Both the position numbers and the translations under genes were made by a program. Of a stretch of 64,000 nucleotides of DNA, positions 2,004 to 64,000 are shown one piece after another. The notes under the pieces are model-generated. The model was not told where the DNA came from. It worked only from the letters and a program-made list of their open reading frames with translations, and ran no database searches. Each line of letters starts with the position of its first letter. Position 1 is the first letter of the stretch. This DNA is from Bilabrum cf. latius (Eukaryota): positions 682,001 through 746,000 of the forward strand of contig OZ237748.1 in NCBI GenBank assembly GCA_965178125.1, read 5' to 3'.

Positions 2004-6362
<4,359 letters not shown>

Positions 6363-21714: not shown

Positions 21715-21845
21715 CCCTAACCCTAACCCTAACCCTAACCCTAACCCTAACCCTAACCCTAACCCTAACCCTAACCCTAACCCTAACCTAACCCTAAACC
21801 CCTAACCTAAACCCTAAACCCTAACCCTAAACCCTAAAACCCTAG
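21715..21845. repeat. Second telomeric tract (CCCTAA)n degenerating to CCCTAAA/CCTAA variants
   Basis: Seen directly. Variants on the right side are typical of the proximal edge of a telomere. Confidence 0.95.
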
Positions 21846-46058: not shown

Positions 46059-46159
46059 TGTTATCCGCCAAAATGTGGAGTTATGATAACTCTATTTCTA
46101 CTATATAGTAGAAATAGAGTTTACTTATATAAAAACTACACACATTTTGGCGGATAACA
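46059..46159. repeat. Terminal hairpin: 19-bp inverted repeat enclosing a 34-bp perfect palindrome
   Basis: TGTTATCCGCCAAAATGTG (46059-46077) pairs with CACATTTTGGCGGATAACA (46141-46159). Palindrome AACTCTATTTCTACTATATAGTAGAAATAGAGTT at 46088-46121. Confidence 0.9.
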
Positions 46160-47544
46160 TAAGAGGTCAATATTAACCACTTCACAACATCTTAAGCCGT
46201 AGTCCTTCATAATGTCCTTCACTTGAACATAATAATTTAATAGCTATTTATTCATATATCTACCTAATTTAATACCTTCGCGCCGTTAATGTCTATCTGT
46301 TAGACCTTTACTTTACTTAATCTGTTGAGTGAATCCCTAGCCTAAGTCTTAGGATATGCCCGCCCGAAATTGCGGAAATATATAGTCATTTAAGAATATA
46401 TGTTCGCAATTCTGGGCGCGTAGGTGTATTGAGTTTTATATTATGATTTGGTTTTAAGTATCAATTGACATTTACCACTTTAGAAAATAACTAAATAAAT
46501 ACTTAAAGAGATTGACAGAAGTATTAAAGTCTTTTTAATACTTCCAATGAAAAATTTAAATTAATAAATAAAACTAAACTAATATATCAACTTAATTTAT
46601 CTCTTTTTTTATTACTTGTCAATCTATACTTAAATAATTGAATATTTAAATATAACTAGAAGGAGATATTAATCACTTTATAAAGTCTTTTATATGTCAT
46701 CTCTTCAAAACTTCAAATATAAGGGTATCCCCTTAAAAATACATTCTTTTATCTATCGCCCGAAATTGCGGTAATATTATAGCTATTCAAGATATATTTC
46801 TGCAATTCTGGGCGCGTAGGTGTATTGATTTTTATTTTTCATAATTCTTTAAATATGTTAAAGTCCTTTGTTTGAGTATATGATATAAAGGAATACAAAG
46901 CGGGATAACTTAAAAATGATAAATGTTTTGACGATGACTTTAAAATGACTCAATGAACTGGTTTATGTCAAGTGTATTACTTTGAAATGATTAATCACTA
47001 GATTAAATGGAAAATATAGGATAATAAAATATGGTATAGTATAATACTAGCGCCCGAAATTGCGGTAATATATTAGGATATTAAGATATATTGTCGCAAT
47101 TCTGGGCGCGTAGGTGTATTGAGTTTTATATTTTGTTAATTTTGACATAGTTATCTTATAGAGGTGTAATTTTGTAATAAAGATATTTCTAGTATGTGCT
47201 ATATTAAATGTCCAGAAATGACGGCCCGAAATTGCGGAAATATATTAGGATATTAAGAGATATTGTCGCAATTCTGGGCGCGTAGGTGTCTTCAATAATT
47301 AATAATCAACTACTTCTTTATTTTGATTAATTTTTTTGACTTACCGTTCATTTTATTGACCACTTAACGGGATATCACAAAAAGACTTAACCACTTGACG
47401 AGATATTTTAAAATAACTAATAATAAATATGACCGCCCCAAATTGTATCTCCAGATATGACCGCCCCAAATTGCGGAAATATATAAGTATCAAGAAAATT
47501 ATGTTTGCAATTCTGGGCGCTCACCCGTATTCAATTTTACATAT

Positions 47545-47754
47545 TCACTAACTCATACCACTTGAAGTGGTCCATTTGATCTTGTGTTCATATTTAGAAT
47601 GTCCTTTAACTTGTATCAATGTATTGAGTACTTCTTCTAACTAGTCCTTAACAAATGATTTTGTCTTATGATATGTCTTGGTAGTCTTCACCTATTTAAT
47701 AACTAATTTACAAGTCTTACCGACAATATACTAAGTTAATAAATCTTGTATCAT
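47545..47754 (-). CDS. Small viral hypothetical protein (69 aa)
   Basis: ATG to TGA with 4 internal TAG and no TAA/TGA in AT-rich DNA; head-to-head with the gene at 47763. Confidence 0.55.
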
Positions 47755-47762
47755 AATATATT

Positions 47763-48170
47763 ATGTATGAGATAATTATTGATGGATTCAAATATAAACC
47801 CTCTACTCGTAGAAATAAGAAATATGATGTATTCAAAAATGGTAAGTATATCACTAGCTTTGGTGATGCACGATATGCTCAATACTTTGATTTGATTGGT
47901 AAGTATGGAGATAATAACCATATTGACCCTAAAAGACGACGCCTATACTACCGAAGACACGGGAAGACTACCGATACTAATAGCTCAAAATATCACAGTC
48001 ATAAAATCTTATGGGGAAGTGATAATGCTATTAAGGACTACTTAACAAAACTAGCCAATGGAGTATTAGATGTAAAAAGGTATGTTAAAGGGGATACTTT
48101 GGAAAAATGGTTAGATGACTATAGGTCTAAAGTGGACGCAAGACTGAAACAATTAAAAATATTAAATTAA
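47763..48170 (+). CDS. Tlr6F-like (DUF5754-like) protein
   Basis: KKYDV...SFGD..Y..Y...H.DPKRRRLYYRRH...S.KILW pattern typical of this virophage/PLV/giant-virus family. Confidence 0.7.
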   Translation: MYEIIIDGFKYKPSTRRNKKYDVFKNGKYITSFGDARYAQYFDLIGKYGDNNHIDPKRRRLYYRRHGKTTDTNSSKYHSHKILWGSDNAIKDYLTKLANGVLDVKRYVKGDTLEKWLDDYRSKVDARLKQLKILN

Positions 48171-48327
48171 AAAGTCAATACGCCTAAACGCCCAGAATTG
48201 CGAAAATATATCTTGAATAGCTATAATATTACCGCAATTTCGGGCGCCCAAATTTGAATCGAGCTTAAGACATCTCGTTTAATTAGACTTAAAAATAATA
48301 TATTATTATAGTATATACTATATTATA

Positions 48328-48861
48328 ATGTGCTATAAATGTCGTAACTTCATAATCAATAAGCTAAAGATTAATGACTGGAATAAGATAGCCCCTCTAT
48401 TAATACCAGCTGGAGAGACTAGAGAAGAAGACGGAAAGTGTATCTGTGATCACCAAATTAAGGAAGTTCATTTCGTTGAGTATCCCCCAACTGGTGATAT
48501 ATTTAAATTAGGTTCTGAATGTATTAATAACACATTCGAAAAGGATCATGATGTGTATAAGGCTTGTATGTATAAGACTTGTGATGTATGCTCTTGTGTT
48601 GTTAAAAAGTCAAGTTATAGCAGTCATATTAAGTCCATCAAACACGAAATGAATGAAGACATATTAAAAGAGAAAAAGAGATGCACTGATTGCGAAGACT
48701 GGATTGAAAAGACCTCTTGGAAAAAGACTTGTCTTAGTTGCTATTACAAAAAGAAAGGATACAAATAGTGTAAAAGGTGCGAGAGGTATCTATTAAAACC
48801 TGATACCACTTATTGGTATTGCTTTACATGCTACTCTAAAAAGAAGAAATATAAGAAGTAA
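48328..48861 (+). CDS. Cys-rich zinc-ribbon/finger protein
   Basis: CICDH...GSEC, CDVC...H, CTDC...CLSC and, after TAG 48766, CKRC...CFTC; ends TAA. Confidence 0.7.
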
Positions 48862-48918
48862 TACTCGTTTAATTAACGCCAATATATACTATTAAATTAC
48901 ATATATTTAATAATATAA

Positions 48919-49584
48919 TTAAGTGGATGTCTTAACCTTAGACTTCTATTCTTTTAATTGCTTTCTTTTAAGTCTTCGTCTTTCGTTTATCTTGTCTTTA
49001 TTCTTGTGATAGTAGTCAAGAGAATATTTTTTTAGTTTTTCTTTATTATTTTCTTCGTACTTTTTATGATTTTCTTTTATTTTGTCTCTATTTTTGTCTC
49101 TATACTACTGCATCATTTCTTTATTATTCGAATACTTTAGATTTTGACGTTCATTTATAATATGTCTATTCTTTTCGGCGTATAGTCTTTGCTTAGCGAC
49201 TATATTGCCTCTATTATCATCATAGTATTTTCTCCATCTTTTCTATCTCTATTCTTTTGTCTCATTGTAATACTCTTTTCTAGTTCGTCCTGCAATACAC
49301 TTATTGACACATTTATATTTCCTGATATACCCTCCTTCAATCTTGCCTAACTCTTCTCTATCTTTGCACGGACATTTTTCTACTAATTCAATTTTTACAT
49401 CACCTAAGTCATAAATAATGAATGAAGTAATAAAAGGATATTCTCCTTTCTTATAATTCTTATAGTCTTTTGTGTGTCCTCCCTTTCTCTAGCTCAATGT
49501 CTAACAAGTAGAGCCATAATATACTTTTGAAGGATCATTAAGTGAGTAAAGTCTGTATATCTTTGCATTTGAGAAATTTACCAT
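48919..49584 (-). CDS. GIY-YIG endonuclease (not in the ORF track)
   Basis: AKIYRL...VYYGSTC*TLS*RKGGH...IELVEKCPCKDREEL..IEG.YI...CVNKCIAGRT followed by a K/E/Y-rich tail; * = TAG. Confidence 0.85.
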
Positions 49585-49682
49585 TGTTTAAGGTTGGTTT
49601 ATATTGTTATTAGTTGTTTTATCTTTAAGTCAATGTGTGTTTTATTCTATTAAGTTATTTTCGCCACTATATATATATAGAT

Positions 49683-51338
49683 ATGTCAAACAAAGGCAAG
49701 ACATACACTAGAGGTAAAATATCTTACACGTACGGTGATAAGCCAACAAAAAATCAAAAAGATAGTGATGATTTAGACGCCACTATTAAGGGACTACTTG
49801 ATAAAGGGTTTGAAGAGGTGCCAACCACCAAAGCTAGTATTAAAAAGCTACCTTTATACTCTTATATATCGTACATCTCAAATATCAAGGGAAAGCCATT
49901 GTTTAGAAGAGGTGGGATTATTAACTCAATATAGAAGGATGGAGACTATTTTACCTTGTATAACCTAATAAATAAAGTTCATTTTAGTGTTCAATAGTCT
50001 AACCTTGTTCGCCTTTTTTATAAGATGACTAAAGCTTAGACAAAAAAACTTAATAAACCAACCGGTAAATTAATAGAAATAGAAGACAAACCAAAGAAAG
50101 ACGAATTTAAATATAAGCCAATATTAAAGAAACTATATTATGAAGAAGGTAATGTAGTCAGTCGTGATGCGTTATATGACCTAGCTAGACAAAAAGATAG
50201 GAGAATAAAACGAAGACAAGTTGAAAAGTGGTTAAATGGCCAAATGCTACACTAGCTCACGAAAAAACGACCTAAACAGTCAGCAGTAAGTTCTTTTGTA
50301 CCTACTAAGCCTTTCTCAATTTACGCCTTGGACTTAATAGACATGCAAAAGTATTCAGACACTAATGACGGCTATAATTGGATATTAAATATAATGGATA
50401 TATTCACAAAATACCTATGGAGTATTTCATTAAAAGATAAGACATTAGTTAATATAATTCGTGAGATGAAGAAACTATTTAAGAAACCTAATTGGAGAAA
50501 ACCGACTGTTATGTTAAGTGATAATGAGTTTAATAAAGAGGCATATATTAAATTTATGAATGACAATGACATAAAACCACTATTCACCATCGCAGGAAAT
50601 CCATAGTCTAATGGTGCAGTTGAAAGACTTAATAGGACTATAAAAGAATAGATTAGAAAAGACTTTGCTATTAAGAATGACAGTGATGGTGTTTGGCATA
50701 CGTCATTATAGAGACTAGTAAGAGCTTATAATAAGAGAAAACACAACACTATAGGAATGTCTCCACTAGAAGCAATGAAACCCGAAAATTTAGAAGTAGT
50801 TAGATCTAGAATTGAAAATAAGAAATTATCCAATAATTTCGACGGGAATGATAAAGATCTTAATGTAGGGGATAGAGTTAGAGTATTACTTGAGAAGAAC
50901 AAGTTTAAAGGAAATTTATTTAATTGGTCTAGAGAAGTCTTCACTGTTAGATAGAAGACCAAACCAAGAAATCCTAAGTAGAGGATTAAATATAAAGTAA
51001 TGGACAAAGAGGGAGAACCTCTTACTGGATTCTTTAATGCTTCACAGTTATAGAAAATAGACAATGTAGAACACGAAGATAAGGTAAATGATGACATAGA
51101 CAAGGAAAGTGAAGAGCCTGAAATTGATAATGTTGAAGGTTTAGAAGTAGAACCAGACACAATAGAGAAGTTTTTAGATAAAAGACAAAATAAAGATAGA
51201 CTTATTGAATACTTAGTCAAATATAAGGGATATTCTAATAAGTTTAATGAATGGATTACCCGTAAGAAATTAGAATAGGATTATGGGAAAGACCAAATAC
51301 GACCACTTGCGAAAGACTATTCTGATAGATAGAGATAA
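49683..51338 (+). CDS. Retroviral-type (rve, DDE) integrase with C-terminal chromodomain
   Basis: DLIDM, DIFTKY, SDNEF, NP*SNGAVERLNRTIK, YN...H.TIGMSP, VGDRVR, NWSREVF; chromodomain IEKFLDKR...EYLVKYKGY...NEW; ends TAA. Confidence 0.92.
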
Positions 51339-51568
51339 TTAATCTAGTAATATACTTTATGGCATAATACCAGCGCCCCAAATTGCGATAATATATTAGG
51401 ATATTAAGATATATTTCCGCAATTCTGGGCGCGTAGGTGTATTGATTTTTATAATTTTATCATTTTATGTTAGCCAGTGTATAGATACGACTTTTGAAAT
51501 ATTAATTTTTTCTAGTATTTACCATATTAATATAAAACAAAGTCAAAGAAATTATTTATAATAAGTAT

Positions 51569-52249
51569 ATGGAATTGTTAAATATAACAAGATACAAAAA
51601 TAAAGACCTTCTAAAAAGAGTAGTCAAGTTAAGTGAAAAGTACAAGTGGTCTCGTGATGACTTAAAAATGTTATGGATTAACAAGCATTATTCAAGTTTA
51701 TAGGGTGAAATAGATGATGAAGGGGACGAGATAGCAACTATAAATTTAGTGAGACAACCGTCTAAAATAGAACCTATCTAGTTAAAACCTCCACAATTAG
51801 AACGACAATAGGCTATATTGGAAGATGTTGAATTAGATAGCGAAGACATAGAGGATAATAAAGAGGAAGACTATTTGAATGATACATATAGTGATACAAG
51901 TAGTGAAGTAGTGAGTGAAGTCATTGAAGAGAAACCAATTAAAGAGAAACCAAAACCAAAAATCAATATTAGTGATCTTACAGTGAGTGATAAACCTGAA
52001 TATGTTTATTGTGTAGAGATTAATGATACAAAGGTATATTTTAACAAAAAGAATACATAGACTTATCCTGATGCTTTAAGAAGAGGTAAATCACACGCTG
52101 ATAAAATGAGAAAGCGAGTATTAGGACATATTCATTTTGATGAGACCGATATGTATGACAGCAACTTATGGTATGCTAAAGTGTGCTGGGGTGATAGTGA
52201 TAAAATTCATGATAACTTTACAAAGTTTAAAAATATCTTATTAAAATGA
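51569..52249 (+). CDS. Viral hypothetical protein; acidic middle, C-terminus weakly Tlr6F-like
   Basis: Continuous frame with TAG only; ends TGA. Confidence 0.65.
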
Positions 52250-52268
52250 CCACTATATATATAGGTAA

Positions 52269-52775
52269 ATGAAAAACACAATTTGGAAGTTTTTAAATGA
52301 ATACTTTGATGTCTTTAGTTTAATACTTAAAATACGAGACGAAAACCCTAGTGATGTCATAAGTACTATAATAGCAATGTATGAAGAGAGCGAAATAGAA
52401 GACCCAAAAGAGATCCATAAACATATGAGTGAAATACGTCATAACTTGGAACTTAGATTTAAAACAAAGTATGTTGAAGTATTAAGCACAGATCACGATG
52501 ACAAAGCAGAAAGTTATCTCCATCTTAATAATATATTATGTAATATTGAAGGAGAGCAATATGTGGAGGATAGCAAAATCAAGATGTCCGAGAAAAAACA
52601 AGTATTTATAAAGACTTACGGTGATGTGGATAAATTCAACGAGACGGTCCAAGAGATGGAACAAGAAGACGAAAAGACTAAAACAGGAGTAGAAAAAGAA
52701 ATAGATCAAAAGTTAAGTCTATTATGTAATACTTCTAAACAACCAGACAATATTTGTCTAGATTATAAATTGTAA
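52269..52775 (+). CDS. Viral hypothetical protein (168 aa)
   Basis: ATG to TAA ORF preceded by the CTATATATATAG motif. Confidence 0.7.
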   Translation: MKNTIWKFLNEYFDVFSLILKIRDENPSDVISTIIAMYEESEIEDPKEIHKHMSEIRHNLELRFKTKYVEVLSTDHDDKAESYLHLNNILCNIEGEQYVEDSKIKMSEKKQVFIKTYGDVDKFNETVQEMEQEDEKTKTGVEKEIDQKLSLLCNTSKQPDNICLDYKL

Positions 52776-52887
52776 TATCAGTATGTATTTTAATTATAAA
52801 AATACAAATTGACAGGTTAGATACGACCGCCCCAAATTGCGGATATATTATAGCTATTCAAGATATATTTTCGCAATTCTGGGCGTC

Positions 52888-53202
52888 TCACCGTGTTGAT
52901 TTTTCCACACGTTTTAACTCATTCATAATTTCTAAATCAAGTAAGCCATTAATAATACGAAAATCTTTGTAATCTTGCGCCATCTAAAACATTCCTTCAT
53001 ATTTAGGCAACATAGCCATTTTAAGACCTAGGATAGACTTAATATCTTCGTAGGTAATAATCTAGTCTTTTTCTACTTCTTTTAGCTCTTCAACTTCACA
53101 AATACGAAGGTCCTTTCCATCAAAAAATTGATCAAAAGCTGTCTTTACCTTTTTTAATATATTGTTCAAACTTTTTATGTTATAAATATTATTAAAGTTC
53201 AT
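52888..53202 (-). CDS. Viral hypothetical protein (104 aa)
   Basis: ATG to TGA with TAG read-through; the stop lies in the tail of a hairpin repeat copy. Confidence 0.6.
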
Positions 53203-53358
53203 TTCTATATATATATAGTAAATATTTTTTGGCGGAATAATTAAACTTAGGATCTAACCGCCCGAAATTGCGGAAATATTATAGCTATTCAAGATATATT
53301 TGTGCAATTCTGGGCGCGTAGGCGTATTGACTTTTGTATTATTTTGTATTTATTTGTA

Positions 53359-53997
53359 TTATATTTGGTACCCTAACTAGAGGCAATTCCTCAATTTATC
53401 GTGAAGCTATTCGTAAGTATTATAAATGTAATAGCTAGAAGGGTTCAACTCTTTGATATAAGAGTTACGGTCTTCTAACATAGACTTCTATTTATCTACT
53501 TTCTAATTCTTTAAAGTCTTCTAGAATAGTGAATTAGATGGAAGACATACAACTATACTTTCTTTTTTAAATAACTCATTAGCTAGACTTAACTCTTTAG
53601 TAAAGAATATTACTCTCTTCTCGCTACCTTCATTCAACCAGTTATCTTTTACCCATTGAAGGGCTTCTTTACTGGCTTTTCTATTAAGTATATTATAATT
53701 ACCCCAATCACTTTTTAACTTACATTCGTCTAGTTTCATAAGTAATTCGGGCTCCTAGACATATACTCCTAGAGTACTATCTAAATCAACAAGTAAACAG
53801 TCTTTAGAACTAGACCGTAATATTTGACAAGCGGTAGACTTACCACTACCTTCAGGCACACAGATACATATTTTTTTACGTTTATGTAAAGGTTTATCCC
53901 ATAACCACTACCAACAAGACATACCACCAGAGTATGCTAGAGGTAGTAAGACACTTAAACCTCCTACAACGACACTGCTTGAACTGATTCCATCCAT
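53359..53997 (-). CDS. P-loop NTPase/kinase-like protein with hydrophobic N-terminus
   Basis: VVVGGLSVLLPLAY; ICICVPEGSGKST; LLVDLD; many internal TAG; ends TAA. Confidence 0.65.
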
Positions 53998-54040
53998 TTT
54001 ATTATATTAATAAAAAAGATATTTCTATAATTAAACTCAA

Positions 54041-54763
54041 TTATCCTGTTAAGAAAATACAAGGTACGACTTTATATTCTACTCCATTAGCATCAGTAGA
54101 AGTACCACTTGAAAAGTCTTCATCTACTAGAGCTTTTGCTACAATAGTCTAATCAACAGAGACTGGTTGAGGATTAGGCGCATAGACATATCCACTATCA
54201 GAGCTATTAATTAAGTAATCACCCGCACTTACATCTCCTCCATTTTTATTTACTTTCACAGCTCCATCACCTAAAGATGCCACAAGTACTTTACCATCAT
54301 CATGGTGTTCTCCTACATATACTCCAAAAGGTGGTGAATGTTGAGATGCTTGACTTACGACATATTCATTTGTAGTGGGTCCTTTATTAATTACACTATC
54401 AAGAGTAACCACTGACCCAATACCAGCTGGTAAACTAGAAGCAACATCACTACAAGATGCAACATGTGTACCGGTAAATGATAAGAAGTTGGTTGCTGTC
54501 ATAGTACTGGTTTGAGTTCCATCACCTGCGACATTAATTGAGATAGATGCACCTGCTGATGCTGAGTTTTTACCTATTCTCCATGTGAAAGACTTAGCAT
54601 CTTCATTAGTACCACTCATAATATAGGGTAGTGATTGACCATTGAAGTTAAGTCCAAAGTTAGCGACTCCATCAAAGCCTTCTGCTTTAATTGATTCTAC
54701 TTCAATAGACTTACTCTTTAATTCATATTCATTTTTGTTTAAGAGATTGTATATTCCTGCCAT
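54041..54763 (-). CDS. Putative fibre/spike-associated protein with viral C-terminal chaperone-like domain
   Basis: SFTGTH...VASLGDGAVKV...GDYLINSS..GY...TIVAKAL..DF...C resembles C-terminal domains of phage and giant-virus fibres. Confidence 0.55.
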
Positions 54764-55006
54764 TACTTATATTATATTAGCTAGACTAGATATTTTTTTT
54801 TTAAATTACGAGATTTTAAAAAGTTAGTAGTATAAGATATAGTATAATACTAGCGCCCCAAATTGCGATAATATATTAGGATATTAAGATATATTTCCGC
54901 AATTCTGGGCGCGTAGGCGTATTGATTTTTATAATTTAGTCATTTTTAATATAGCCACCTCTTACAATGTAATATTTTTAAATTAAAATATTATAGTATA
55001 TACCAT

Positions 55007-56449
55007 TTAAAGACTTCTTAATCTTGAATCTAACCAAGATATTAGAGTATCAAGTCTCTTATTAAGACCTGAACCTTCACCAGTCTTACTTTCACTTGCT
55101 CCACTAGATGATTGACCTTGTGCTTCTTGTTCTTGTTCTTCCCGTTCTTGTGCTGCTCGTGCTGCTCTTGTTCTTGCTTCTTGACCTTTACCAAGATCTT
55201 CACCTGCATCGCTTGCTACAAATTCTCCATCTGGTTGTCTTTCTAATAGTGTCCCTTCTGTCTCATCATCTAAAGGTTCATTACCTCTTGCTATCTATTC
55301 AGCAGCTTCATTCATTACATCACTTAATGCGGCTTCTCTTCGTAAGTCTGGATCTTTTTCCTTAGCTCGTCTAAGTCTTTCTTTAAGTGGAGTTCCTGAC
55401 GGTTCTGCACGACTAAATGGGTTTGTTTGTCTTTTTCTAAGTGATAATTGTCTTTCAATATCTTTCTTTGCGTCATCAAACTTGATTCTATTTAAATTTA
55501 CAAATCTAGTTTTACTGTCAAGTCCCGATTGTCTTCCAGTCTTAATATCTTGAAATAAGCTCTATAAATCATAATACTACATATCATCTATTGGCACACC
55601 ATCATATTCATCACCTAATAGTGCTTTAAGTCTATCTTTTAGTACTGGTGCTTTAGATGTGGCTTTTGTTTTATAAATATCATTTATTGCTTCCATTCTT
55701 TTATTAAGTACATCTCTTTTTAGTTTAACTCGATCAGTTTGGCTTCGTAATCGTTCCAAAGCATAGCCTTTTGACTTTTTATCTCCTAATCTTTCTAATA
55801 GAGGTACTATTTGTGTTCCTTTTGCTCTTTGTCTAACTTTTACAAGTCTTGATGCCATTGAATTAAGTTGAGCCTTAGAGAGACCATTTAAAGTTGAATC
55901 ACTTACACCTCTCTCTTTAAGAAACTTCTTCAACTAGTCTACTGTTAAGTCATTCTCTAAGTCTTTGACATCTTTAGGTAAATTGTCTATCTCTTCTGCT
56001 TCAATAAATAAGTTATTTAATGCGTCGTTAAGTTTTGACTCAGCTTTACCTTTTTGAAATAGAGTATTAGATGAGTTCATATATGGAATATTCTATATCA
56101 TCTTAGCAATAGCTTCAGCATCTTCATCAAGTAGTTCATTATCTTTAGCTAGTCTTACAACTTGATCTATATCTGCTACTTTATACTTTTTACCTTTCTT
56201 ACTGTTATCTTTAACTCTTTTTAAAGTCCTTTTCATAAGATTTGCTATTCTTTTTAATTTTCTCTTTTCTTCTAATGGCATAAAGTCCTCTTCTAATTGA
56301 ATTTTTTGTTTTCGTTTAGCTTCTCCTATAGCTGCTCTTATGGCTCTCTCTTCGTTTCTTACCTTTCGTCTTGCTTGACTTGTAGGGGCTCTACTTTCCA
56401 CAAGTCCATCGAGTAAGTCTTCCAATACTGCTGTTCTTTTTTTAGACAT
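55007..56449 (-). CDS. Charged coiled-coil viral protein (~480 aa)
   Basis: ORFs 56093-56449 and 55577-55933 are in frame and joined by TAG; E/Q-rich C-terminus; ends TAA. Confidence 0.65.
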
Positions 56450-56488
56450 CGTATAATTATATTATGATAATAGATAATATTATTAAAT

Positions 56489-56932
56489 TTACATACCATT
56501 TTCTTTTAATATTTTACTTGCTTCTCCTAGACTTACGCCATACTTCTTCATTACCGCACTCACTAATTTACCTCTTGCTTTAGCTTTTGGATTAGGTTTC
56601 CTCTTACGCTTAGCCTTTCCAAGTCCTACAGTCTTAAGTGCAGCATCAAGAGGGACACCAACTTCAGGGGCTACAAACTTAAGACCTGTTCGTATTGCCT
56701 TTCCTACATTACTTTTAATACCTTTTTTAATTGTTCGCCCTACTTTCTTGAATTTACGACCTACTTTTTTAAAAAAGCGTCCAACTTTTGAACCACCTTG
56801 AACACCATTCATTTGATAGTCTTCAAATAATTCAAGTAGTTTTTGCTTAAATTCGTCTTTTAAATTGTTGACTTTGGCATTAGAGGGTGATTTACCTAGT
56901 TGCTATAGTCTTTGTCTTATGAAATCGTCCAT
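56489..56932 (-). CDS. Basic virion core protein precursor
   Basis: VQGG/S putative cleavage site, amphipathic FFKKVGRKFKKVGRTIKKG, and C-terminal RGKLVSAVMKKYGVSLGEASKILKENG resembling virophage/polinton core proteins. Confidence 0.65.
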
Positions 56933-56966
56933 TATAATAAAGAACTATAATATTTCTTATTAATAT

Positions 56967-57785
56967 ATGGTTAAATTAACAAAGTAGTAGCTAAAGTATT
57001 ATTCACGATTTGATAATAAGATATTCAAGTCTTTTAAAATAAATAGAAGTGATATTTATTTAAATGGTTCATATTCATTTACTCATAATATGCTTTCACT
57101 TTGGGCTGGAGACATAGACCTATACTCTCCCGTTAAATTGTCTGATGTCAATAGTGTTATAAATGAATTAAAGACCTTAAGAGGTAGTAGATTAATACAT
57201 ATTTATAACGTTGAATATGATGATAATGGCGTCTCTTTAGATACATTTCTTGATACTAATAGACCTAAAATATTAAAATCTTTAAAATAGTAGAATAATC
57301 CTATGATATTCGTTGAAAGTTGGGTCTATACTGGATATATTGAAGAGGTTAGTATATTATATGATATTGGAGGTAAGATATTGAAAATGAAGCCTAAACA
57401 AGTAGCAGATAGGATGATAGATGACATAAAAGACTTACAAAAAGAACGAAAATATTTCAAGATATTAAAAAGACTAGATGTTATATATGACGAATTAGGG
57501 CAAAAGAAGAAACAGGAAGAGATTGAACAACTTATAAAGAATCCCGATGTAGGCTTTCTTTACTTGACTATTACAAGATTAAAAAGTTTATTACTTCCAA
57601 CAGTTCCATTTAAATTAAAAAATAGAGTTATTGATAGACTTAAGAATGATGTACGTAAATTAGGACTTATTAAACCAGTATATCAATACTTTAATACGTT
57701 CAATAGTAAAGATGTAAGTATTATAATTAAATATTTAGAAGACTAGCTCAATAAAAGGGTCGTTAAATTAGTTTCACATAATTGA
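56967..57785 (+). CDS. Pol-beta-superfamily nucleotidyltransferase-like protein (Sputnik V21-like)
   Basis: YLNGSYS...AGDIDLY (hGS...DhD); one frame with TAG only; ends TGA. Confidence 0.6.
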
Positions 57786-57979
57786 ATACACCTAAACGCC
57801 CAGAATTGCAGACATAATTTTCTTGATACTTATATATTTCCGCAATTTGGGGCGCCCTATATTGTGAGATTTTCATTAGATTGACCCGAAAATGTAAAAC
57901 CTCTAACAGCCTACGCGCCCAGAATTGCACAAATATATCTTAAATAGCTATAATATTACCGCAATTTGGGGCGGTCGTC

Positions 57980-58501
57980 TCACCAGTCACTATAAAATAG
58001 CTCGTCAATGTCTTCTTCGTTAAGTTTATTAACTTTTTCTGTCGGATGGAGGGGATTATCTGGTCGTATGTCATGTAAATAACACTTAAGTCTGAAAAAT
58101 TTTAGATATTCATAAATTAACTACATTTGAAAAAAGTCTTTTTTAAATAACCTTTCCCACTCAACGGATTGTTTAAATTGTTCTATACATTCATTTATTT
58201 TCATTGAATTAGCATAGTCAAAGTTGAATGTTTTTAAGTGATCAAAAGAAGACGATACATATCCGTTATCATTTAACGTAAAATCCATATCATAATAGTA
58301 CTTTTTACTGCAATTGATAATACATTCTCTATACTTACGAGCAATTAGAAGACAAGTTATATAATTAGTATAGCAATCTACTCTATCAGTTGTCATCATA
58401 TTACGCTACTCTTCTGCTTTCTTATAGTACTAATTAACTTTACATGAGTACTTATAAAATGATTTAATATATCTTTTTGAAATTAGAAGTTTGTGATCCA
58501 T
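57980..58501 (-). CDS. Viral hypothetical protein (173 aa)
   Basis: ATG to TGA with TAG read-through. Confidence 0.6.
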
Positions 58502-58646
58502 AATTCTATATATTTATATGATATTTTAATCATATTCTTAAGACTGTGCACTCTAAAATGAATATTTGAAATGGCTACTTCTCACAATATACCTTTTGAA
58601 CCCACTAATTATTAGAAAAATAATAAATATTAACATATAGTATATA

Positions 58647-59714
58647 ATGTCATTATCATACGATGAAATACCAAATAGTCATTTAGTTGCTTTAAGAGAA
58701 TACAAGCACAAGAAGAGGAACAAAAGCGTCTTTTTTAGTGAAGATGTAGGGGAAAAAGTCATAACTCCAGAAGATATAAGTGATGATTTACTTGAAGAGT
58801 ATTATGGAAAGAGAGCAATTAAATATGAGAAGAATAAAAAAGCATTACGTGAAGAGATGTGTAAGCTAGTGAATGGAAATAAAAAACTAGTTAGAAAGAC
58901 TAACGAGTTAAGAATAGATGATAAGAGTTAGTTTGAAATAGTCCCATTCTTTGATGATGAGACCAAAAGACAAATACACTATTTAAGTGGTTAGGCTGGT
59001 GCTGGTAAGTCTTATATTGCTAAGTCTTTACTCAAGTATTATCATATGTTCATTCCAAAGAAGAGGGTTTTAGTCATTACACCAGTACAGGAAACAAATC
59101 CAACTTATTTAAAATATGGTAATTTTATTGATATTGATAAATTAGTAGCAGTAGATAGAAACGATAGTTATGATGACTTAATGAGGAAATACAAAGAAGA
59201 AAAGATATTCTTTAGGTAGGAAAAGAAGTCATTAGAACCTCATGAATTAATTAAAAGAGAGATAGAGATAGAAAGAATGAAACCAACAAGTAAAGACAAG
59301 ACAAAGGCATCATTTACCACTACTCCATTGTATGAAGAATGGGCAAAATAGGGTCCTTCTGTGGTGGTATTTGATGATTATGAAGCCTTAAACGGTGATA
59401 AAAAGTAGAGAGCGTTATTCTTAATTAAGCGTATAGGTGAAGTTGGAAGACATAGCTCAACAAATATGATAGTTATAAGTCATTTAACGAATGATTATGC
59501 GAATACTAGGTCAATAGTCATGGAAAGTCATAATATTATTTTATTTAAGAGAAATCTATGGAAATTTAGCAAATATTTAATGAAAGCATATTTAGGATTT
59601 GATGCAAGTCTTATAAATCGTGTTTATAAATTGTTTGGAGAAGGTAATAGATGGCTATGTATTAATAAGACTTATAATTTTATCACTTGTCCTAAATAGA
59701 TGTTCGTATATTAA
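58647..59714 (+). CDS. FtsK-HerA/A32-like genome packaging ATPase
   Basis: Walker A YLSG*AGAGKS, Walker B VVVFDDYE, GRH motif, IVISH; ends TAA. Confidence 0.9.
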
Positions 59715-59733
59715 TTTTCTTAGTATTAAGTAT

Positions 59734-60282
59734 ATGGATATAACCACTGCATTAAGTCCTGAAGAGGTACAAAGACTATACTTTACATTTACAAAGTAGC
59801 ATATACCAGTTATAATGTATGAAGAAATAAGTGATACTAATAACATCAGACAATTTCTAGATGAAAATCCTTTATTTGTCCTTTATTATCCTAACTTAGT
59901 AGAAGGAGCAACAATGAGCGGTCATTATACTGCGGTCATATTTAATAAATCAAAGAATACTCTTTATTTTTGGGATAGTTATGGTCAATTACCTGATACT
60001 CATATTCCAGTCGTAGGAGGAGTCATAGACCCATAGAAGCTATATGATAGAAGTAGTCTTCTAATAGATCACGTATTAGATGCTGGTATTAATGTTGACT
60101 ATTCAAATCAAAAGAATCAATTAATATCAAATAACTCTGCCACATGCGGTCGGTGGAGTGTGCTCAGACTTCTCTTTCATAATTTAACGAATGATTAGTT
60201 TAATAGTCAATTAAAGAAGGCTTTTAAAAAGTATGGAGGAGGACTAGATAATGATGAACTTATTACTTTGATAATTAGTTAA
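59734..60282 (+). CDS. Virion maturation cysteine protease (adenain/Ulp1-like)
   Basis: GHYTAV (His), YFWDSYG (Asp), Q...SATCGRWS (Gln, Cys). Confidence 0.88.
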
Positions 60283-60629
60283 TATGACATATACCATAAA
60301 TTTTTAGATATTGAAAATTGATATCTATAAGGTGGCCATATTAAAAAGACTAAAATATAAAAATGAATACGGGTACGCGCCCAGAATTGCGGAAATATAT
60401 CTTAATATCCTAATATATTATCGCAATTTGGGGCGCTGGTATTATACTATATCTTAAGATACTAAATTTTTAAAATTTCGGAATATTGGATTTTTTCAAT
60501 GAGTCAAATAATTAATAAAAACTTTTTTAAAAAGTCAATACGGGTACGCGCCCAGAATTGCGGAAATATATCTTAAATAGCTATAATATTACCGCAATTT
60601 TGGGCGCTCGATATCTAAGTCTTAAGTAT

Positions 60630-61055
60630 ATGACTAATAGTAAAGTTCCCTCAAATATTTTGGATTCAAAACTATACCTTGATATCAAGAGTATTATTTA
60701 GGAGAAGTATCCTAAGTCTTCAGCATATAGGTCAATGTTAATAATTCGTAAATATAAAGACTTAGGGGGAAGACTATCAAAAAAGAAAAAATCAAGTAAT
60801 AATTTAAAAAGATGGTCTCGTGAGAAGTGGGTCAATCTTAGCCCGTATGTATTGGGTCTAGTAAAGTCTATTGATAAGTGTCCTTCTTGTGGTAGTAAGC
60901 ATCCAGAGTAGGGCATTATCCCGTCAATTTGTAGACCTACTATTAGGATCAATGATTCTACGCCTAATTTAGCTTACAAGTATTCAAAAGAATAGATGCT
61001 TAAAGCACTCATTAAAAAAATTAAGTCAAAAAGAATTGAGTGGACTAAATTATAA
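60630..61055 (+). CDS. DUF5872-like viral protein
   Basis: SAYRS...KYKDLGG...LKRWSREKWV...CG...CRP.IRI...TP pattern seen in giant viruses and phages; TAG read-through. Confidence 0.6.
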
Positions 61056-61167
61056 TAACTCAATACGGGTACGCGCCCAGAATTGCGGAAATATATCTTA
61101 AATAGCTATAATATTACCGCAATTTGGGGCATTAGACAAGACTTATTTTCTTGATAAATGTTATAGA

Positions 61168-62094
61168 ATGGTGGAGATTCAAGAACCAGATATCTTTTAT
61201 ATTAACTCATAGGATACTATAACATCTATTAATACTAATAGACCAGTATCAATACATGAACAGCGTCAAGGTAATATCTTGACAAATTCACAAAACTACT
61301 TATTATCACTTGACCGATGGACTCTTAAATGTCGTATTCCTTTATTTGTAGCAAGTAAAGAAGTAAAGAATAGCGATAATTAGTCAATTTATAAGATGTC
61401 GTTTGTGAAGAAGAGTGATGGAACTACTTACACTCGTAATATTGTCTTAACTAAGCCGTTATATTATAGTCTTAAGACCCTATCTAATGAATTTAATAAT
61501 ACTCTTAGTGATTTATGTGGAGATGCTAGTATTCCAACTGATAGTATAGTATTTGAATATCACGGTAAGACTAAAACATTTAGTTTCACCCGTTTAGCCG
61601 CTTTTACAAGTGCGTGGACTTTAAGTTTTAACTTTCCTTTATTCTCTATATTTGAGACATTTGAATATGACGATGAAGGTAAAGACATCAAGAGTGATAC
61701 TTATATAAATCTATTAGATGGATATAATGAATAGAGTGCTTCTACCTTAGATTAGTTTCCTACTATGGAGTATATTCAAATTATTAGTCCATCACTTCCA
61801 ATACTTCCAGAATTTACGCCATCATATAAAAGTACATCTAGTACAGAGATACAAAGTGAAAATATCTTAAGTGATTTCAAGATAGACAATACAACAGGAA
61901 CGAGTTTTATTAAAATAAACTTTAGTAGTGGAGGAAATCATAGATGGCAATAGTTCTATAGATCAGCATTTAATAGTTATAGTATAGTACCGTATTTTAG
62001 AGATACTTTTGGAAACTTATACGAAATACCCTTTACTTTTGGACAAGGACTTAATATAAAAGCTCTATTTAAAAGTAAAAAGTTAATAACTTAA
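61168..62094 (+). CDS. Minor capsid (penton) protein
   Basis: EQRQGNILTNSQNYFISLDRW...IPLF N-terminus, ILSDF, IKALFKSK C-terminus; lies directly upstream of the MCP. Confidence 0.8.
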
Positions 62095-62136
62095 AGTAAA
62101 AAATAAATAAATATCTTTAGTCTTAATATATTTATA

Positions 62137-64000
62137 ATGTCTGATATGGATAATGTACCTGTAGCAGCACAAAGCAAAGTCGTAGATGACGTCTCAGAAC
62201 TACCAGTAACTCAAATAGCTGACGAAAAACTCAACTTTGTGGGTGATAGTCAAGCTATTACTCTAGGAACTACCCTTGGATACTCTTCCAAGTTCCAAAA
62301 CCACTATGAACCAGATGGTGGTAACTCTAGCGCAACTAATGCATTTAGAAGTAATTACACTTTTGTCGTGCCATCAAATCAAGGAATGACTGACAGTAAT
62401 CCCCGTCTAAGAGTTTCATTTGACGTATACATCTATGATAGTTAGAACAATGGAGCAGTAGCTCAAACTGATATCGTCAATAAGGTAGCCCCTTCTACAT
62501 TTATGGTAAATTCAATGATCACAAGTTCCACAGTTAAAATGGGAGACTTATCTCGTAGTTCATCACCTTATCAATTAGTCAATTTAATAGCTAGAAGTCT
62601 TGACCGTGCCACTCTAGCACAAATAAGTCCTGTCTTTTAGGCTGATAACACTTGGGAATTTAATACTGCCGCAAATGGTCTTGCTAAGTCTGTCCTTCAA
62701 TGGGGTGTAAATGATGATAGTATTATGGAAGCTCGCGGTCCTGGTAAGAATTACCGCGCAACACTTGAAAAAGTGGATGCTAATACTCCAATACCTAATA
62801 ATAATGTAACACCAACTCAAGACTATGTCAAATTACATATTGAAATCTCTGAAGCACTTCTTGCACGTCCTTTCCAATATATGATGGGTGGTAATGCTAG
62901 ACCTTTTGTTGATCATCCACAATTAAATGTTAATTTACAAATGAGAAATAACTTAATTGATAAGATGTTTAATACTTCAAGTGATTGGAATGGAGACTAT
63001 GCTTTTGCTTTATCCGATTGCTAGATCCATTTTGATGTCTTTACTTATAATACTCATCTTAACTTCTTGAAGAAAGTACCTAAACAAATATTCTACAACT
63101 CTGTTGACTTTGAACTACATGAAGAGCCTAAACTTGATAATCCTATCACTACTAAAGGTGTCCATACTTTTAATAATTATCAACTTTAGACTTGCCCTTC
63201 TTGGTTTGCTGTGTGCTTAGTTGATTCTCAATATGGAGAAGCTAGTGGTACACCTCATAGAACACTTGCCATTAACAATATTAAAGTACAACTTAGGTCT
63301 TAGGGTTCTATTTTAGGAGAACTTACACAAGACGATATCTTTAGACTTAGTGAAAGAAATGGATCAAATAGTGAGTATGCTTCTTTTACTAACTTAGATG
63401 TAACTGTAGGAGGTGCTTCTAAAGTATACGGATCTAATGGCTGGCTCTTATTTAGACTTAGTGATTTAAATACTCCTGAAACTATTCAAAGCAACAGTGC
63501 TGACCCTATTAGTATTCGTGTTCAAGTAGCCTATGACGAACCCCCAACCGCTGCTATGTCTCAAGGATATAAAGCTCAATTATTCTGTGCCTATGACAAG
63601 ATTATCGTGAATACTAGAGGTGCCGCTATTGAATGGCGTGAAGATAGTGCTTCTGTTGACCCTGAGAAAGTGGCTAAACCTTCTAATTATACATTTTCTA
63701 ATATGAACTACTCTAAGAACGTATTAGGTGGAAGACGTCGTAAAGTGATGCAATTCTTTAAGAGAGCCTTTAACAAAGCTAAAGACTTAGGACGTAAAGT
63801 GGTAGACTTTGGAAAGAAAGCTAAAGCTAAATTTGATAAAGTGAAACCAGCTCTTCGTAAAGCAAGACAAGCAGTAAGTGAATACTTACCCGATGAAGTG
63901 AATGACCTAGCTGAACGTGTTGGAGCAGGTCTTTTAACTAGTGGTGGAAGTCTTTTGACCAGTGGAGGTAAGAAATTAACTAAGGCTCAACTTATGAAAC
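62137..64000 (+). CDS. Major capsid protein (double jelly-roll), 3' end outside window
   Basis: More than 620 codons open with TAG=Gln; beta-rich; FVVPS, ISEALLARPF; basic C-terminal tail after VLGG with repeated LLTSGG. Confidence 0.8.

Follow-up and report, generated by a model that had tools for sequence, protein, structure and literature searches.

From position 46059 to its end at 64000, the analysed stretch of 64,000 nucleotides (the window) most probably holds 18 kb from the left end of a mavirus-like provirophage in GC-rich eukaryote nuclear DNA, with UAG read as glutamine and UAA and UGA as stops (probability about 0.85). The element has 30% GC and adjoins eukaryotic DNA of 55–73% GC; by window stretch, GC is 0.60 at 44001–46000 and 0.29–0.36 across 46001–64000.

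Reading frames and gene content

The preliminary description held that the viral genes are broken only by TAG, end in TAA or TGA, and would be missed by standard gene callers, and the reading frames agree with this. With the standard code, ORFs within 46059–64000 reached 204 aa at most; with TAG as sense, the same region held 18 tightly packed ORFs of 104–621 aa. TAG occurred in 16 of these (69 in-frame TAGs in total), and the count of in-frame TAA and TGA, zero in 4,713 codons, is zero by construction since these triplets delimit the ORFs. The 17 complete ORFs terminated in TAA (13) or TGA (4), and none in TAG. As a chance control, the lengths of ORFs of at least 100 aa were summed under each code assumption and compared with 100 shuffles. 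TAG as sense gave 6,294 aa (longest ORF 631 aa), far above all 100 shuffles (mean sum 533, maximum sum 1,240, longest ORF at most 213 aa). The sum was 3,011 aa with TGA as sense and 2,529 aa under the standard code, while TAA as sense gave 5,833 aa vs. up to 5,306 in shuffles, with a longest ORF of 381 vs. 325 aa. The ORFs of the element were as follows:

47763–48170, + strand: DUF5754-like ORF, 135 aa, no TAG (Pfam PF19058, E 5.9e-6, 26.7 bits, slightly below the cut-off of 27.4)
48328–48861, + strand: Cys-rich ORF, zinc-ribbon-like by composition, 177 aa, 1 TAG, no family match
48919–49584, − strand: ORF with a GIY-YIG-like N-terminal motif (KIY...YYGST...R...H), 221 aa, 6 TAG
49683–51338, + strand: rve integrase with C-terminal chromodomain (Pfam, PDB), 551 aa, 12 TAG
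51569–52249, + strand: ORF without assigned family, 226 aa, 4 TAG
52269–52775, + strand: ORF without assigned family, 168 aa, no TAG
52888–53202, − strand: ORF without assigned family, 104 aa, 2 TAG
53359–53997, − strand: small P-loop protein (GSGKST), 212 aa, 7 TAG (Pfam AAA_18, E 0.0042, below cut-off)
54041–54763, − strand: Gly/Ser/Thr-rich ORF without assigned family, 240 aa, 1 TAG
55007–56449, − strand: charged low-complexity ORF, 480 aa, 5 TAG (weak SAP motif, E 0.0038, below cut-off)
56489–56932, − strand: ORF with basic repeats resembling the C-terminal tail of the major capsid protein, 147 aa, 1 TAG
56967–57785, + strand: ORF without assigned family, 272 aa, 5 TAG
57980–58501, − strand: ORF without assigned family, 173 aa, 3 TAG
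58647–59714, + strand: P-loop ATPase (Walker motifs) in the packaging-ATPase position, 355 aa, 6 TAG
59734–60282, + strand: putative cysteine protease, 182 aa, 3 TAG
60630–61055, + strand: DUF5872 protein, 141 aa, 3 TAG (Pfam PF19197, E 1.4e-19, 71.2 bits, cut-off 27.5)
61168–62094, + strand: penton (minor capsid) protein, 308 aa, 5 TAG
62137–64000, + strand: major capsid protein (MCP), 5 TAG

The two capsid proteins are of virophage type. The MCP, of which just the final 7 of 628 residues lie past the window end, matched Pfam MCP_V20_C (30.4 bits, cut-off 27) and PDB 6g45/6g43 (E 1.2e-15), and had 60 representative relatives at E ≤1e-3; among 36 aligned members, MCP_V20_C matched 34 and Sputnik_MCP_1st matched 8. 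The penton matched PDB 6g41 at E 7.2e-13 ("Minor capsid protein") and 3j26_N at E 4.7e-5 ("Minor virion protein"). The integrase, expected for a mavirus-like virophage, passed the Pfam cut-offs both for rve (32.7 bits against 32.6) and for Chromo (30.3 bits against 25.1), also matched PDB integrases and chromodomains, and had 20 relatives. The other two of the four virophage hallmarks that had been claimed stayed below the curated Pfam thresholds, and both proteins are weakly recognisable from their sequences. The ATPase carries a Walker A motif GxAGAGKS, in which x is TAG, and a Walker B motif VVVFDD, with sub-threshold matches to AAA_10 (25.2 bits against a cut-off of 27.5) and AAA_22 (25.9 against 27) and no relative found in PDB. 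The putative protease matched Peptidase_C57 around the His motif (E 0.0043, 16.3 bits, cut-off 24.5), gave no match in PDB, and its AF2 model had a mean pLDDT of 45. Likewise, the GIY-YIG assignment stands as a motif (GSTCxTLSxR was found as quoted), while Pfam, PHROGs, and PDB searches returned no match and the AF2 model had pLDDT <50 across residues 1–106.

Pfam and PHROGs searches identified no polymerase, primase, or helicase gene among the 18 visible ORFs. Dependence of the element on a giant virus is suggested purely by analogy, and a self-mobilising Maverick/PLV-like element, or a defence element kept by the host, could carry a virophage-type capsid with no need of a giant virus. We consider this unlikely, though it keeps some weight: neither giant-virus sequence nor a shared promoter was identified, an upstream motif search in the element gave nothing clear, no replication gene is visible, and copy number is apparently high. 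To our knowledge, however, all characterised viruses with this type of MCP and penton are giant-virus dependent, and the absence of replication genes of its own also fits dependence on a helper.

Glutamine as the probable meaning of TAG

Glutamine is the best-supported meaning of TAG in the element, judging from homologue columns and codon usage. Residues were scored over 14 usable TAG columns, five from the MCP and nine from the integrase, using distant homologues only, a method that was correct for 35 of 39 sense codons. Scores were 5.1 for Q, 4.3 for K, 2.4 for R, −14.5 for L, and −16.6 for Y. On resampling, the observed Q-minus-K score fell within the distribution of Gln codons and was reached by 1.0% of Lys-codon, 1.2% of Glu-codon, and 0.7% of Arg-codon samples. 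Q was the plurality residue in two conserved integrase columns (7/17 and 8/17 distant homologues), and the TAG of the NPxSNGAVER motif (position 50604, residue 308) aligned to a Q of the retroviral integrase PDB 4pa1. The five MCP columns are variable; four of them can be aligned to the mavirus-type MCP in PDB, whose residues there are D, K, N, and D. Codon counts were CAA 105, CAG 6, and TAG 69, and the glutamine share rises from 2.36% to 3.82% once TAG is counted. The replacement of CAG by TAG parallels that of CTG (1) by TTG (30).

There is a small chance that TAG, while a sense codon, encodes a residue other than Gln (Lys, Glu, Arg, Leu, or Tyr). By rank alone, Lys lies near Gln over the 14 columns, several of which are K-rich, and codes with UAG as Leu or Glu have been described in other protists (PMC5304391, PMC11687900, and PMC10553269, in the text available). 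Resampling nevertheless rejects a behaviour like that of Lys, Glu, or Arg codons at the ~1% level, the column scores disfavour Leu and Tyr, and CAG is depleted exactly like CTG, with the T-initial synonym favoured in each case. Host sequence also speaks for glutamine: the B_lectin-repeat ORF next to the element has three internal repeats, where a TAG in one corresponds to CAG in a paralogous repeat, and host TAGs are located in Q-rich tracts. The preliminary description had placed the TAGs at glutamine sites, and all of the motifs it quoted were found.

Junction with the host and the code of host genes

The left border is exact at 46059, the first base of a 19-nt perfect inverted repeat (46059–46077/46141–46159) that surrounds a 34-nt perfect palindrome (46088–46121). 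Non-coding parts of the element contain a repeated hairpin with a 56-nt, GC-clamped core (GCCC...GGGC). The features of the junction and the hairpin cores, which have no strand unless given, were:

44646–46058, − strand: host B_lectin-repeat ORF reaching the insertion point, start codon absent (Pfam B_lectin, E 4.3e-13)
46059–46159: left terminus, nested palindrome starting with TG (inverted repeat and palindrome)
46160–47762: non-coding terminal region with five hairpin repeats, no ORFs of at least 90 aa
46362–46417: hairpin core in the terminal region
46758–46813: hairpin core in the terminal region
47052–47107: hairpin core in the terminal region
47224–47279: hairpin core in the terminal region
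47463–47518: hairpin core in the terminal region
48190–48245: hairpin core 20 nt past the stop of ORF 47763–48170 (dG −20.4, z −4.4)
51375–51430: hairpin core 37 nt past the integrase stop
52829–52884: hairpin core between convergent ORFs 52269–52775 and 52888–53202
53260–53315: hairpin core beyond the 3' end of ORF 53359–53997 (dG −21.8, z −3.4)
54855–54910: hairpin core beyond the 3' end of ORF 55007–56449 (dG −29.3, z −5.0)
57798–57853: hairpin core 13 nt past the stop of ORF 56967–57785 (dG −17.6, z −3.6)
57917–57972: hairpin core 8 nt from the stop of ORF 57980–58501
60379–60434: hairpin core downstream of the protease gene
60550–60605: hairpin core
61075–61130: hairpin core 20 nt past the DUF5872 gene stop (dG −22.4, z −3.7)

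Where they follow the 3' end of a transcription unit, the hairpins are probably 3'-end or termination signals. The terminal region may be a long terminal repeat; the window shows the left end of the element only. The B_lectin-repeat ORF is likely the target gene interrupted by the element. This ORF stretch belongs to a repeat family, with very high word depth in sequencing run X2. The element was present in six sequencing runs, from two coded organisms and two studies, along with deletion variants and a contig with a 96.5%-identical integrase. One variant, lacking 48162–48885, occurred in runs X2 and X3; another, lacking 55360–55944 (585 nt), occurred in X2, X3, and X6. The preliminary description had proposed a metagenome search for free copies; when IMG/VR and JGI metagenomes were scanned, no relatives turned up.

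Host genes in the same window carry in-frame TAG, as had been claimed in attributing the code to the host. The ORF of a poly(A)-binding protein (3–1718) has two, and an RRM (E 4e-35) and an MLLE domain (E 9e-9) lie downstream of them; five Pfam-supported host ORFs hold 33 TAGs in 4,956 codons. All seven host ORFs examined stop at TGA.

An assembly chimera, in which a TAG-recoded virus of another culture organism (e.g., an AT-rich ciliate) or a free virus was misjoined to this contig, is improbable. The GC break is sharp, the junction adjoins a high-depth repeat (44668–46001) that is error-prone for assemblers, no contig bridging 46059 was among the longest Logan contigs listed, and word depth of the element in X2 is ~17 times that of the one flanking host contig (485–533 vs. 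29.8). However, the GC-rich side likewise has TAG as sense, so a rare code is common to both sides, and two further X2 contigs with different GC-rich flanks, each stopping exactly at 46059, link this position to other GC-rich sequence. The same GC contrast with surrounding DNA has also been published as the signature by which endogenous mavirus-like elements stand out in Cafeteria (PMC8547959, in the portion available).

Even less probable is a recoding owned by the virus, as in code-15 phages, with its own suppressor tRNA in a standard-code host. TAG is far commoner in the element than in the host ORFs, published virophage genomes include some with tRNAs, among them an ochre suppressor (PMC6905037, available text), and the right end of the element lies beyond the window; yet host genes require TAG read-through to retain conserved domains, no tRNA gene was found within the 64 kb, and opposite GC pressure on the two would account for the higher TAG frequency in the element. 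A decayed, pseudogenised relic with TAGs as disabling mutations is scarcely credible: the standard code does interrupt 16 of the 18 genes, and premature stops are frequent in published endogenous elements (PMC10120064, as far as its available text goes), but each of the 69 interruptions is a TAG, which off frame is the rarest stop triplet (291, share 0.246, vs. TGA 341 and TAA 550), with no TAA or TGA and no need of frameshifts, the penton (308 aa vs. 307 in relatives), MCP (628 vs. 550–632), and integrase (551 vs. 548–554) are full length, and the frames are also open in relatives at 74–88% identity.

Probable long residence under a TAG code and relation to known systems

For the provirophage, long residence under the TAG code rather than decay fits the codon counts, because CAG has been almost wholly replaced by TAG. 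AT mutation pressure would have produced this through C-to-T changes that turned nearly all CAG into the now-synonymous TAG, and the near-complete replacement therefore suggests long replication in hosts with this code. This part of the claim that the virus is intact and not a relic holds up, while intactness itself extends to the visible 18 kb, in which no replication gene was seen. The element would be translated by host ribosomes using host tRNA-Gln(CUA). By analogy with mavirus, the rve integrase would insert it and giant-virus infection would reactivate it, in which case the helper giant virus would need translation under the same code.

In a standard-code cell, 16 of the 18 visible genes would be truncated. 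Host range may be limited by the genetic code. Standard gene finders see the apparently intact element as broken because TAG serves as a glutamine codon.

Our literature search found no virophage with a reassigned code, nor a TAG-only case. Giant-virus MAGs that annotate best with reassigned codes have been reported (PMC13524828, in the part available). The idea is not wholly new, as recoded PLV-like endogenous elements are already published: according to the available text of Bellas 2023 (PMC10120064), Streblomastix strix carries endogenous PLV-type elements with the code of their host, code 6, in which both TAA and TAG are glutamine, whereas the present element reassigns TAG alone.

Reading frames of the element and the meaning of TAG

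The reading we favour, at a probability of roughly 0.85, is that a virophage-type provirus has integrated into the DNA of a GC-rich eukaryote and that UAG is read as glutamine in both, with UAA and UGA as stops, the pattern of NCBI table 15. GC content was 0.48–0.73 before position 46059, compared with 0.29–0.36 from 46001 to the window end. Read with the standard code, this AT-rich stretch contained short open reading frames (ORFs) only, the longest of 204 aa. With TAG read as a sense codon, it resolved into 18 closely packed ORFs of 104–621 aa, which made up 79% of 46059–64000. In-frame TAG occurred 69 times in 4,713 codons, spread over 16 of the 18 ORFs. Among the 17 ORFs complete inside the window, 13 terminated in TAA, four in TGA and none in TAG, and most of these terminators were backed up by further stops a few codons on. 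That these ORFs lack in-frame TAA and TGA follows from the way they were delimited, and shuffled sequences were therefore used as a control. ORFs of at least 100 aa, with TAG as sense, summed to 6,294 aa (longest 631), whereas 100 shuffles gave a mean sum of 533 aa, a maximum of 1,240 and a longest ORF of 213 aa. Freeing TGA instead of TAG gave a sum of 3,011 aa; freeing TAA gave 5,833 aa, little over the 5,306 that shuffles of this AT-rich sequence attain. Off frame, TAG was the rarest stop triplet (291, against 550 for TAA and 341 for TGA). The preliminary description had proposed that most viral genes are broken only by TAG, and re-prediction agreed: the packed ORFs far exceeded all 100 shuffles in sum, and TAA and TGA, expected in frame as often as TAG under a rival reading, were not seen there even though TAA is the commonest stop off frame. 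The three TAG-containing motifs it quoted were all found, with the integrase TAG at 50604.

The residue specified by TAG was investigated in alignments of the major capsid protein (MCP) with 34 distant representatives and of the integrase, for which 17 distant relatives were used. Database proteins closely related to the element's (P0003 and P0063–P0065) were excluded since their Q may be translated TAG, and TAG was entered as X in the homologue search, which kept the word index from favouring Q. At three of the 12 TAG columns of the integrase, fewer than five homologue residues were available; dropping these left 14 columns in total. The per-residue log-odds method returned the correct amino acid for 35 of the 39 sense codons having at least eight columns. 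Over the 14 TAG columns it scored Q at 5.1, K at 4.3, R at 2.4 and E at −0.6, with L, Y and W far lower. Because the lead of Q over K was small, sets of 14 columns were resampled at Gln, Lys, Glu and Arg codons of the window itself. Among the Gln-codon samples, the Q-minus-K difference seen for TAG fell at the 24th percentile, and the observed score was attained by 1.0% of Lys-codon, 1.2% of Glu-codon and 0.7% of Arg-codon samples. A TAG behaving as Lys, Glu or Arg was rejected at about the 1% level by this resampling of 14 element columns. At two conserved integrase TAG columns, Q was present in seven and eight of the 17 distant homologues. The TAG of the NPxSNG motif aligned to Q in the retroviral integrase 4pa1 and to R in the retroviral integrase 7z0h; the MCP TAG columns were variable and uninformative taken alone. 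Across the TAG columns Q came first, in a small sample of 14 columns drawn from element genes only.

Codon usage provides independent support for TAG as glutamine. The element used CAA 105 times, CAG 6 times and TAG 69 times, so that TAG made up 92% of G-ending Gln codons, and Leu codons ran parallel, with 30 TTG in place of one CTG. Counting TAG raised the Gln share of element residues from 2.36% to 3.82%. If CAG and TAG are synonymous, AT pressure would produce the shift from the one to the other; this replacement implies dozens of separate substitutions and therefore a long history under a code with TAG as Gln.

The GC-rich side of the window was eukaryotic, encoding a poly(A)-binding protein (PABP), a protein kinase, ankyrin and C2H2 proteins, Cpn10 and a B-lectin repeat protein. 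Against a protein atlas, the Cpn10 ORF scored below 0.9 throughout, with matches spread over mixed eukaryote taxa. In the PABP frame (3–1718), TAG occurred twice in frame. The RRM (E 4.4e-35, residues 228–297) and MLLE (E 9.3e-9, residues 483–559) domains of PABP came after the first TAG or after both, and its alignment to a solved Pab1 chain crossed the first. Five Pfam-supported host ORFs held 33 TAG, 386 CAG and 78 CAA in 4,956 codons, with the TAGs located in Q-rich contexts. In the lectin gene, one repeat carried TAG at a site where a paralogous repeat has CAG (a single such pair). TGA was the terminator in seven of seven host ORFs examined, and no tRNA gene was found within the 64-kb window. 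The host, too, therefore appears to read TAG as sense, in which case a suppressor encoded by the element would be unnecessary. The PABP domains past TAGs and the 33 TAGs in five host ORFs agree with the earlier proposal that the code is the host's.

A eukaryote that is both GC-rich and intron-poor and in which TAG alone is reassigned may merit attention in itself, and several further features of the host part were recorded. A 2,343-aa Ala/Gly-rich ORF (36113–43141) was kept out of the code evidence, as it had no Pfam domain and may contain introns. Two short motifs recurred inside it, at 36110–42641, almost all on the minus strand. The motif GGTGTGACGAGTGC had 19 matches at one mismatch or fewer (18 in 36110–42641, one at 6053) versus 0.02 expected, and GGTGCAYYGCAYGG had 12 versus 0.27 expected. 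These may mark the boundaries of introns, or they may be introner-like inserts through which the frame stays open, giving GVTSA and GA(S/L)HG. Tandem repeats occupied 18253–22635 (a 155-nt unit seven times, a 12-nt unit at least 77 times, a 331-nt unit three times and a 53-nt unit eight times, with G-rich tracts). An exact 300-nt duplicate (14239–14538 and 15997–16296, 1,758 nt apart), accompanied by a 94% duplicate at 15424 and 17182, adjoined a scaffold gap of 200 N (17412–17611) and may stem from a tandem duplication or from an error of assembly. A 2.1-kb host patch of 33–43% GC (30800–32900) was without a long ORF, and neither blastn nor tblastx matched it to the element.

Gene content of the element

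The element is, judged from its capsid genes and integrase, virophage-type, virophages being taken as the class Maveriviricetes or Lavidaviridae-like viruses. The genes that carry this assignment are the following.

49683–51338: integrase
61168–62094: penton, 308 aa
62137 onward: MCP; the full protein (database protein P0001) has 628 aa and reaches 7 residues past the window end

The MCP, of the double jelly-roll type found in virophages, matched the Pfam family MCP_V20_C at 30.4 bits against a cut-off of 27 and, over residues 68–533, the PDB entries 6g45 and 6g43 ('putative major capsid protein') at E 1.2e-15. A scan of 1.84 billion representatives returned 60 relatives at E ≤1e-3, and identity was at most 32% to every representative beyond its own cluster. 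Of 36 aligned relatives, 34 matched MCP_V20_C and eight matched Sputnik_MCP_1st. The penton matched 6g41 ('minor capsid protein') at E 7.2e-13 over residues 24–279 and 3j26_N ('minor virion protein') at E 4.7e-5. We take 6g45 and 6g41 to be mavirus entries and 3j26_N to be a Sputnik entry. A Polinton/Maverick or a polinton-like virus was not supported, as the MCP matched virophage families only and pPolB was not found among the 18 ORFs. The integrase exceeded the Pfam cut-offs for both rve (32.7 bits, cut-off 32.6) and Chromo (30.3 bits, cut-off 25.1), and its residues D217, D280 and E314 were invariant or nearly so in 21 sequences.

The C terminus of the MCP (63720–64000) is a basic, Lys/Arg-rich tail past a near-invariant LGG (G531 and G532 in 36 sequences), and a 147-aa ORF at 56489–56932 has similar basic repeats, likewise placed after GG. 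By analogy with mavirus, in which capsid maturation involves protease processing, these tails could be protease processing sites.

Support was weaker for the other two hallmark genes. The ATPase ORF (58647–59714) contained Walker A and Walker B motifs, and its position beside the protease fits a packaging ATPase of the FtsK/HerA type. Its Pfam matches to AAA_10 (25.2 bits, cut-off 27.5) and AAA_22 (25.9 bits, cut-off 27) both fell just under the cut-offs, and no PDB relative was found at E ≤5. A protein search returned close relatives only, hence no TAG columns were gained from it, and PHROGs gave weak P-loop matches to Dda-like and DnaB-like helicase families (E 4.8e-5 and 0.0067). The putative protease ORF (59734–60282) had a weak match to Peptidase_C57 (E 0.0043, 16.3 bits, cut-off 24.5) and no PDB match, and its AF2 single-sequence model (mean pLDDT 45) was too poor for a fold search. 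Read by eye, its residues follow the order H...D...Q...C, which we take to be an adenain-like cysteine protease motif. The genes lie in the order ATPase, protease, DUF5872, penton, MCP, presumably the mavirus order with DUF5872 as the one addition. The GIY-YIG-like ORF 48919–49584 was without a match in Pfam at E ≤0.01, in PHROGs and in PDB at E ≤10, and its AF2 single-sequence N-domain (pLDDT <50) was again too poor for a fold search. Among the 18 ORFs, no polymerase or primase was recognised with Pfam and PHROGs, and no likely true helicase match was seen beyond the weak P-loop matches of the ATPase ORF. A polymerase or helicase gene could sit to the right of the MCP, past the window end.

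The preliminary description had named four virophage hallmark genes, an rve integrase and a GIY-YIG protein. The capsid proteins fit virophage profiles, with the MCP over its Pfam cut-off and both MCP and penton matched in PDB, and the integrase stood with both its domains. The ATPase and protease were carried by matches below Pfam cut-offs, and the GIY-YIG assignment kept its motif, seen by eye, and gained no profile or structure match.

Termini, copies and hairpin repeats

The left end of the element lies at 46059 with host DNA alongside, and the right end lies past the window, so that one terminus is visible. This terminus (46059–46159) starts with TG and has a 19-nt perfect inverted repeat enclosing a 34-nt palindrome; ends processed by retroviral-type integrases start with TG. 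On the host side, a lectin ORF on the minus strand (44646–46058) stayed open as far as the junction and had no start codon, so the element probably interrupts a lectin gene. The lectin stretch 44668–46001 had a word depth of ~1,500 in X2, one of the public sequencing runs, versus ~30 for a neighbouring contig, and therefore belongs to an extensive family of repeats or genes. With the contigs from four runs placed on 44001–64000, two X2 contigs joined 46059 to different GC-rich sequence. Because no contig bridging 46059 was among the matches listed for the four runs, the junction rests on the window's assembly and on these alternative flanks.

Between 86% and 95% of element words were present in six public runs (two organisms, two studies). 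Word depth in X2 was 485–533 for element contigs versus 29.8 for the one flanking single-copy contig; this ratio is not a copy number; many copies would fit it, as would extrachromosomal replication. Copy variants in the public runs included a 724-nt deletion (48162–48885) that takes out a Cys-rich ORF and a 585-nt in-frame deletion (55360–55944) within a 480-aa ORF. An integrase contig of run X3 (49890–51393) had 96.5% identity to the window, with 53 differences in 1,504 nt, and the capsid region diverged less (four differences in 2,275 nt). Similarly, the database integrase P0063 differed from the window integrase at 19 of 551 residues, and the MCP was identical. Region 50004–51337 was without contig cover in X2 and in the run X6, and X7, from the second organism and another sample, had next to no element words (matching pieces of at most 47 nt); neither is proof of absence. 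A joint of 47343 to 60505 was set aside, one side being just 23 nt and inside hairpin repeats.

The free copies that the preliminary description had suggested seeking in metagenomes did not appear. No relatives of the element were found in IMG/VR (with the MCP, two MCP alignments and one distant integrase relative as queries), in JGI metagenomes (with an MCP alignment and the MCP itself) or among phage records by tblastn. The metagenome patterns were back-translated, with Q probably as CAR, a choice that TAG-using relatives could escape.

A 56-nt core, GCCC..AATTGC...GCAATT..GGGC, occurred in 15 GC-clamped, sequence-conserved copies from 46362 to 61130, all in the element; the 46 kb of host DNA held zero copies, with zero expected by chance. 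Five of the cores fell within the terminal non-coding region of 1.7 kb. Intergenic positions, 4–97 nt past gene 3' ends, were taken by the remaining ten, which bounded blocks of co-oriented genes. Five cores folded as RNA gave −17.6 to −29.3 kcal/mol (z −3.4 to −5.0), and no Rfam family was found in the window. From their sequence and placement, we read the hairpins as putative 3'-end or termination signals for transcription units; an alternative is that the core is a MITE-like repeat. The proposed signals resemble the hairpin rule for transcript ends in mimiviruses and differ in that the hairpin sequence itself is conserved. Short-read contigs were also observed to end at hairpin copies. Upstream of the 18 element ORFs, the search for a shared promoter gave AT-rich words only and no clear motif. 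A ACTATATATATA..G box was ahead of three of the 18 starts, and the promoter motif TCTA was in five of the 18 upstream regions versus a background of 0.36. Giant-virus sequence was absent from the window.

Meaning and comparison with known systems

Capsid genes, rve integrase, TAG columns and host TAGs together support the central claim of the preliminary description, an endogenous virophage in the host's TAG=Gln code. To known kinds of system the present case adds a provirus of virophage type, a reassignment of TAG alone that its GC-rich host appears to share, and a codon usage that is at equilibrium. The code would be expected to limit the host range of the virophage, and its helper giant virus presumably shares the code. 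More tentatively, and at less than even odds, the data may reflect a whole host–giant virus–virophage system under UAG=Gln in a GC-rich non-ciliate lineage, with a code change that is perhaps undescribed. The virophage would have been long confined there, with its Gln codon usage at equilibrium and its host range strictly bounded by the code; the same host would harbour a giant virus whose genes use TAG as sense, and the 56-nt hairpin would have evolved into a modular signal for the 3' ends of transcription units.

Endogenous virophages are regarded as inheritable defences against giant viruses. Pipelines built on the standard code would consistently overlook those in a reassigned code or label them 'degraded', and virophage lineages could become locked to their hosts via the genetic code. 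The host is flagged as a high-GC, UAG-only recoded eukaryote, one that would be useful for studying the split between UAG and UAA decoding. It is also a concrete cellular host in which to seek giant viruses with reassigned stops, so far inferred, according to PMC13524828, from metagenome bins only; the same paper reports that for some giant-virus MAGs the best annotation is obtained under a reassigned code and that every isolate came from a standard-code host.

The nearest likeness is to mavirus and the EMALEs of Cafeteria burkhardae, which were annotated under the standard code. Shared features are the rve integrase, the block of penton and MCP preceded here by a putative packaging ATPase and a putative protease, multiple non-identical copies, and a low-GC element within high-GC host DNA. 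The element differs in having TAG as a sense codon, a DUF5872 gene between protease and penton and a conserved 56-nt intergenic hairpin repeat, and in lacking a recognised pPolB or helicase in its visible 18 kb. For the Cafeteria EMALEs, PMC8547959 describes the GC signature and TIR-flanked copies.

Tlr elements of Tetrahymena thermophila, which use the ciliate code, are likewise integrase-bearing virus-like elements in a host with reassigned stops; unlike the present element, they belong to the ciliate germline, are of Maverick type with code 6, and are not virophages. They are named in PMC10120064 (Bellas et al. 2023), which also describes PLV-type elements, endogenous in Streblomastix strix, that follow their host in reading TAA and TAG as Gln; from this its authors infer a long-term virus–host association. 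The Streblomastix elements are similarly integrated small dsDNA viruses following the host's reassigned stops, but with PLV/Metamonada-group MCPs and code 6, in which TAA and TAG are both reassigned. By contrast, our element has a virophage-type MCP and TAG alone reassigned, with TAA as its chief terminator (13 of 17). A full-text literature search, with most subscription journals and supplements (including those of PMC10120064 and PMC8547959) outside its reach, returned no description of a virophage with UAG as a sense codon.

Code-15 crAss-like and other gut phages have genes that are open only if TAG is Gln and that standard callers miss, according to PMC9523058. The bacterial hosts of these phages keep the standard code, from which the phages depart with the help of suppressor tRNAs that they bring, whereas the element and its host appear to share a code. 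Finally, UAG as Gln with UAA kept as a stop is described in PMC5304391 and PMC11687900 for Iotanema spirale, Hartmannula sinica and Trochilia petrani, in which the meanings of UAG and UAA are decoupled as in the element. Those hosts are one fornicate and two phyllopharyngean ciliates, whereas the present host is characterised by 55–73% GC, long intron-poor ORFs and TGA as the terminator in seven of seven ORFs.
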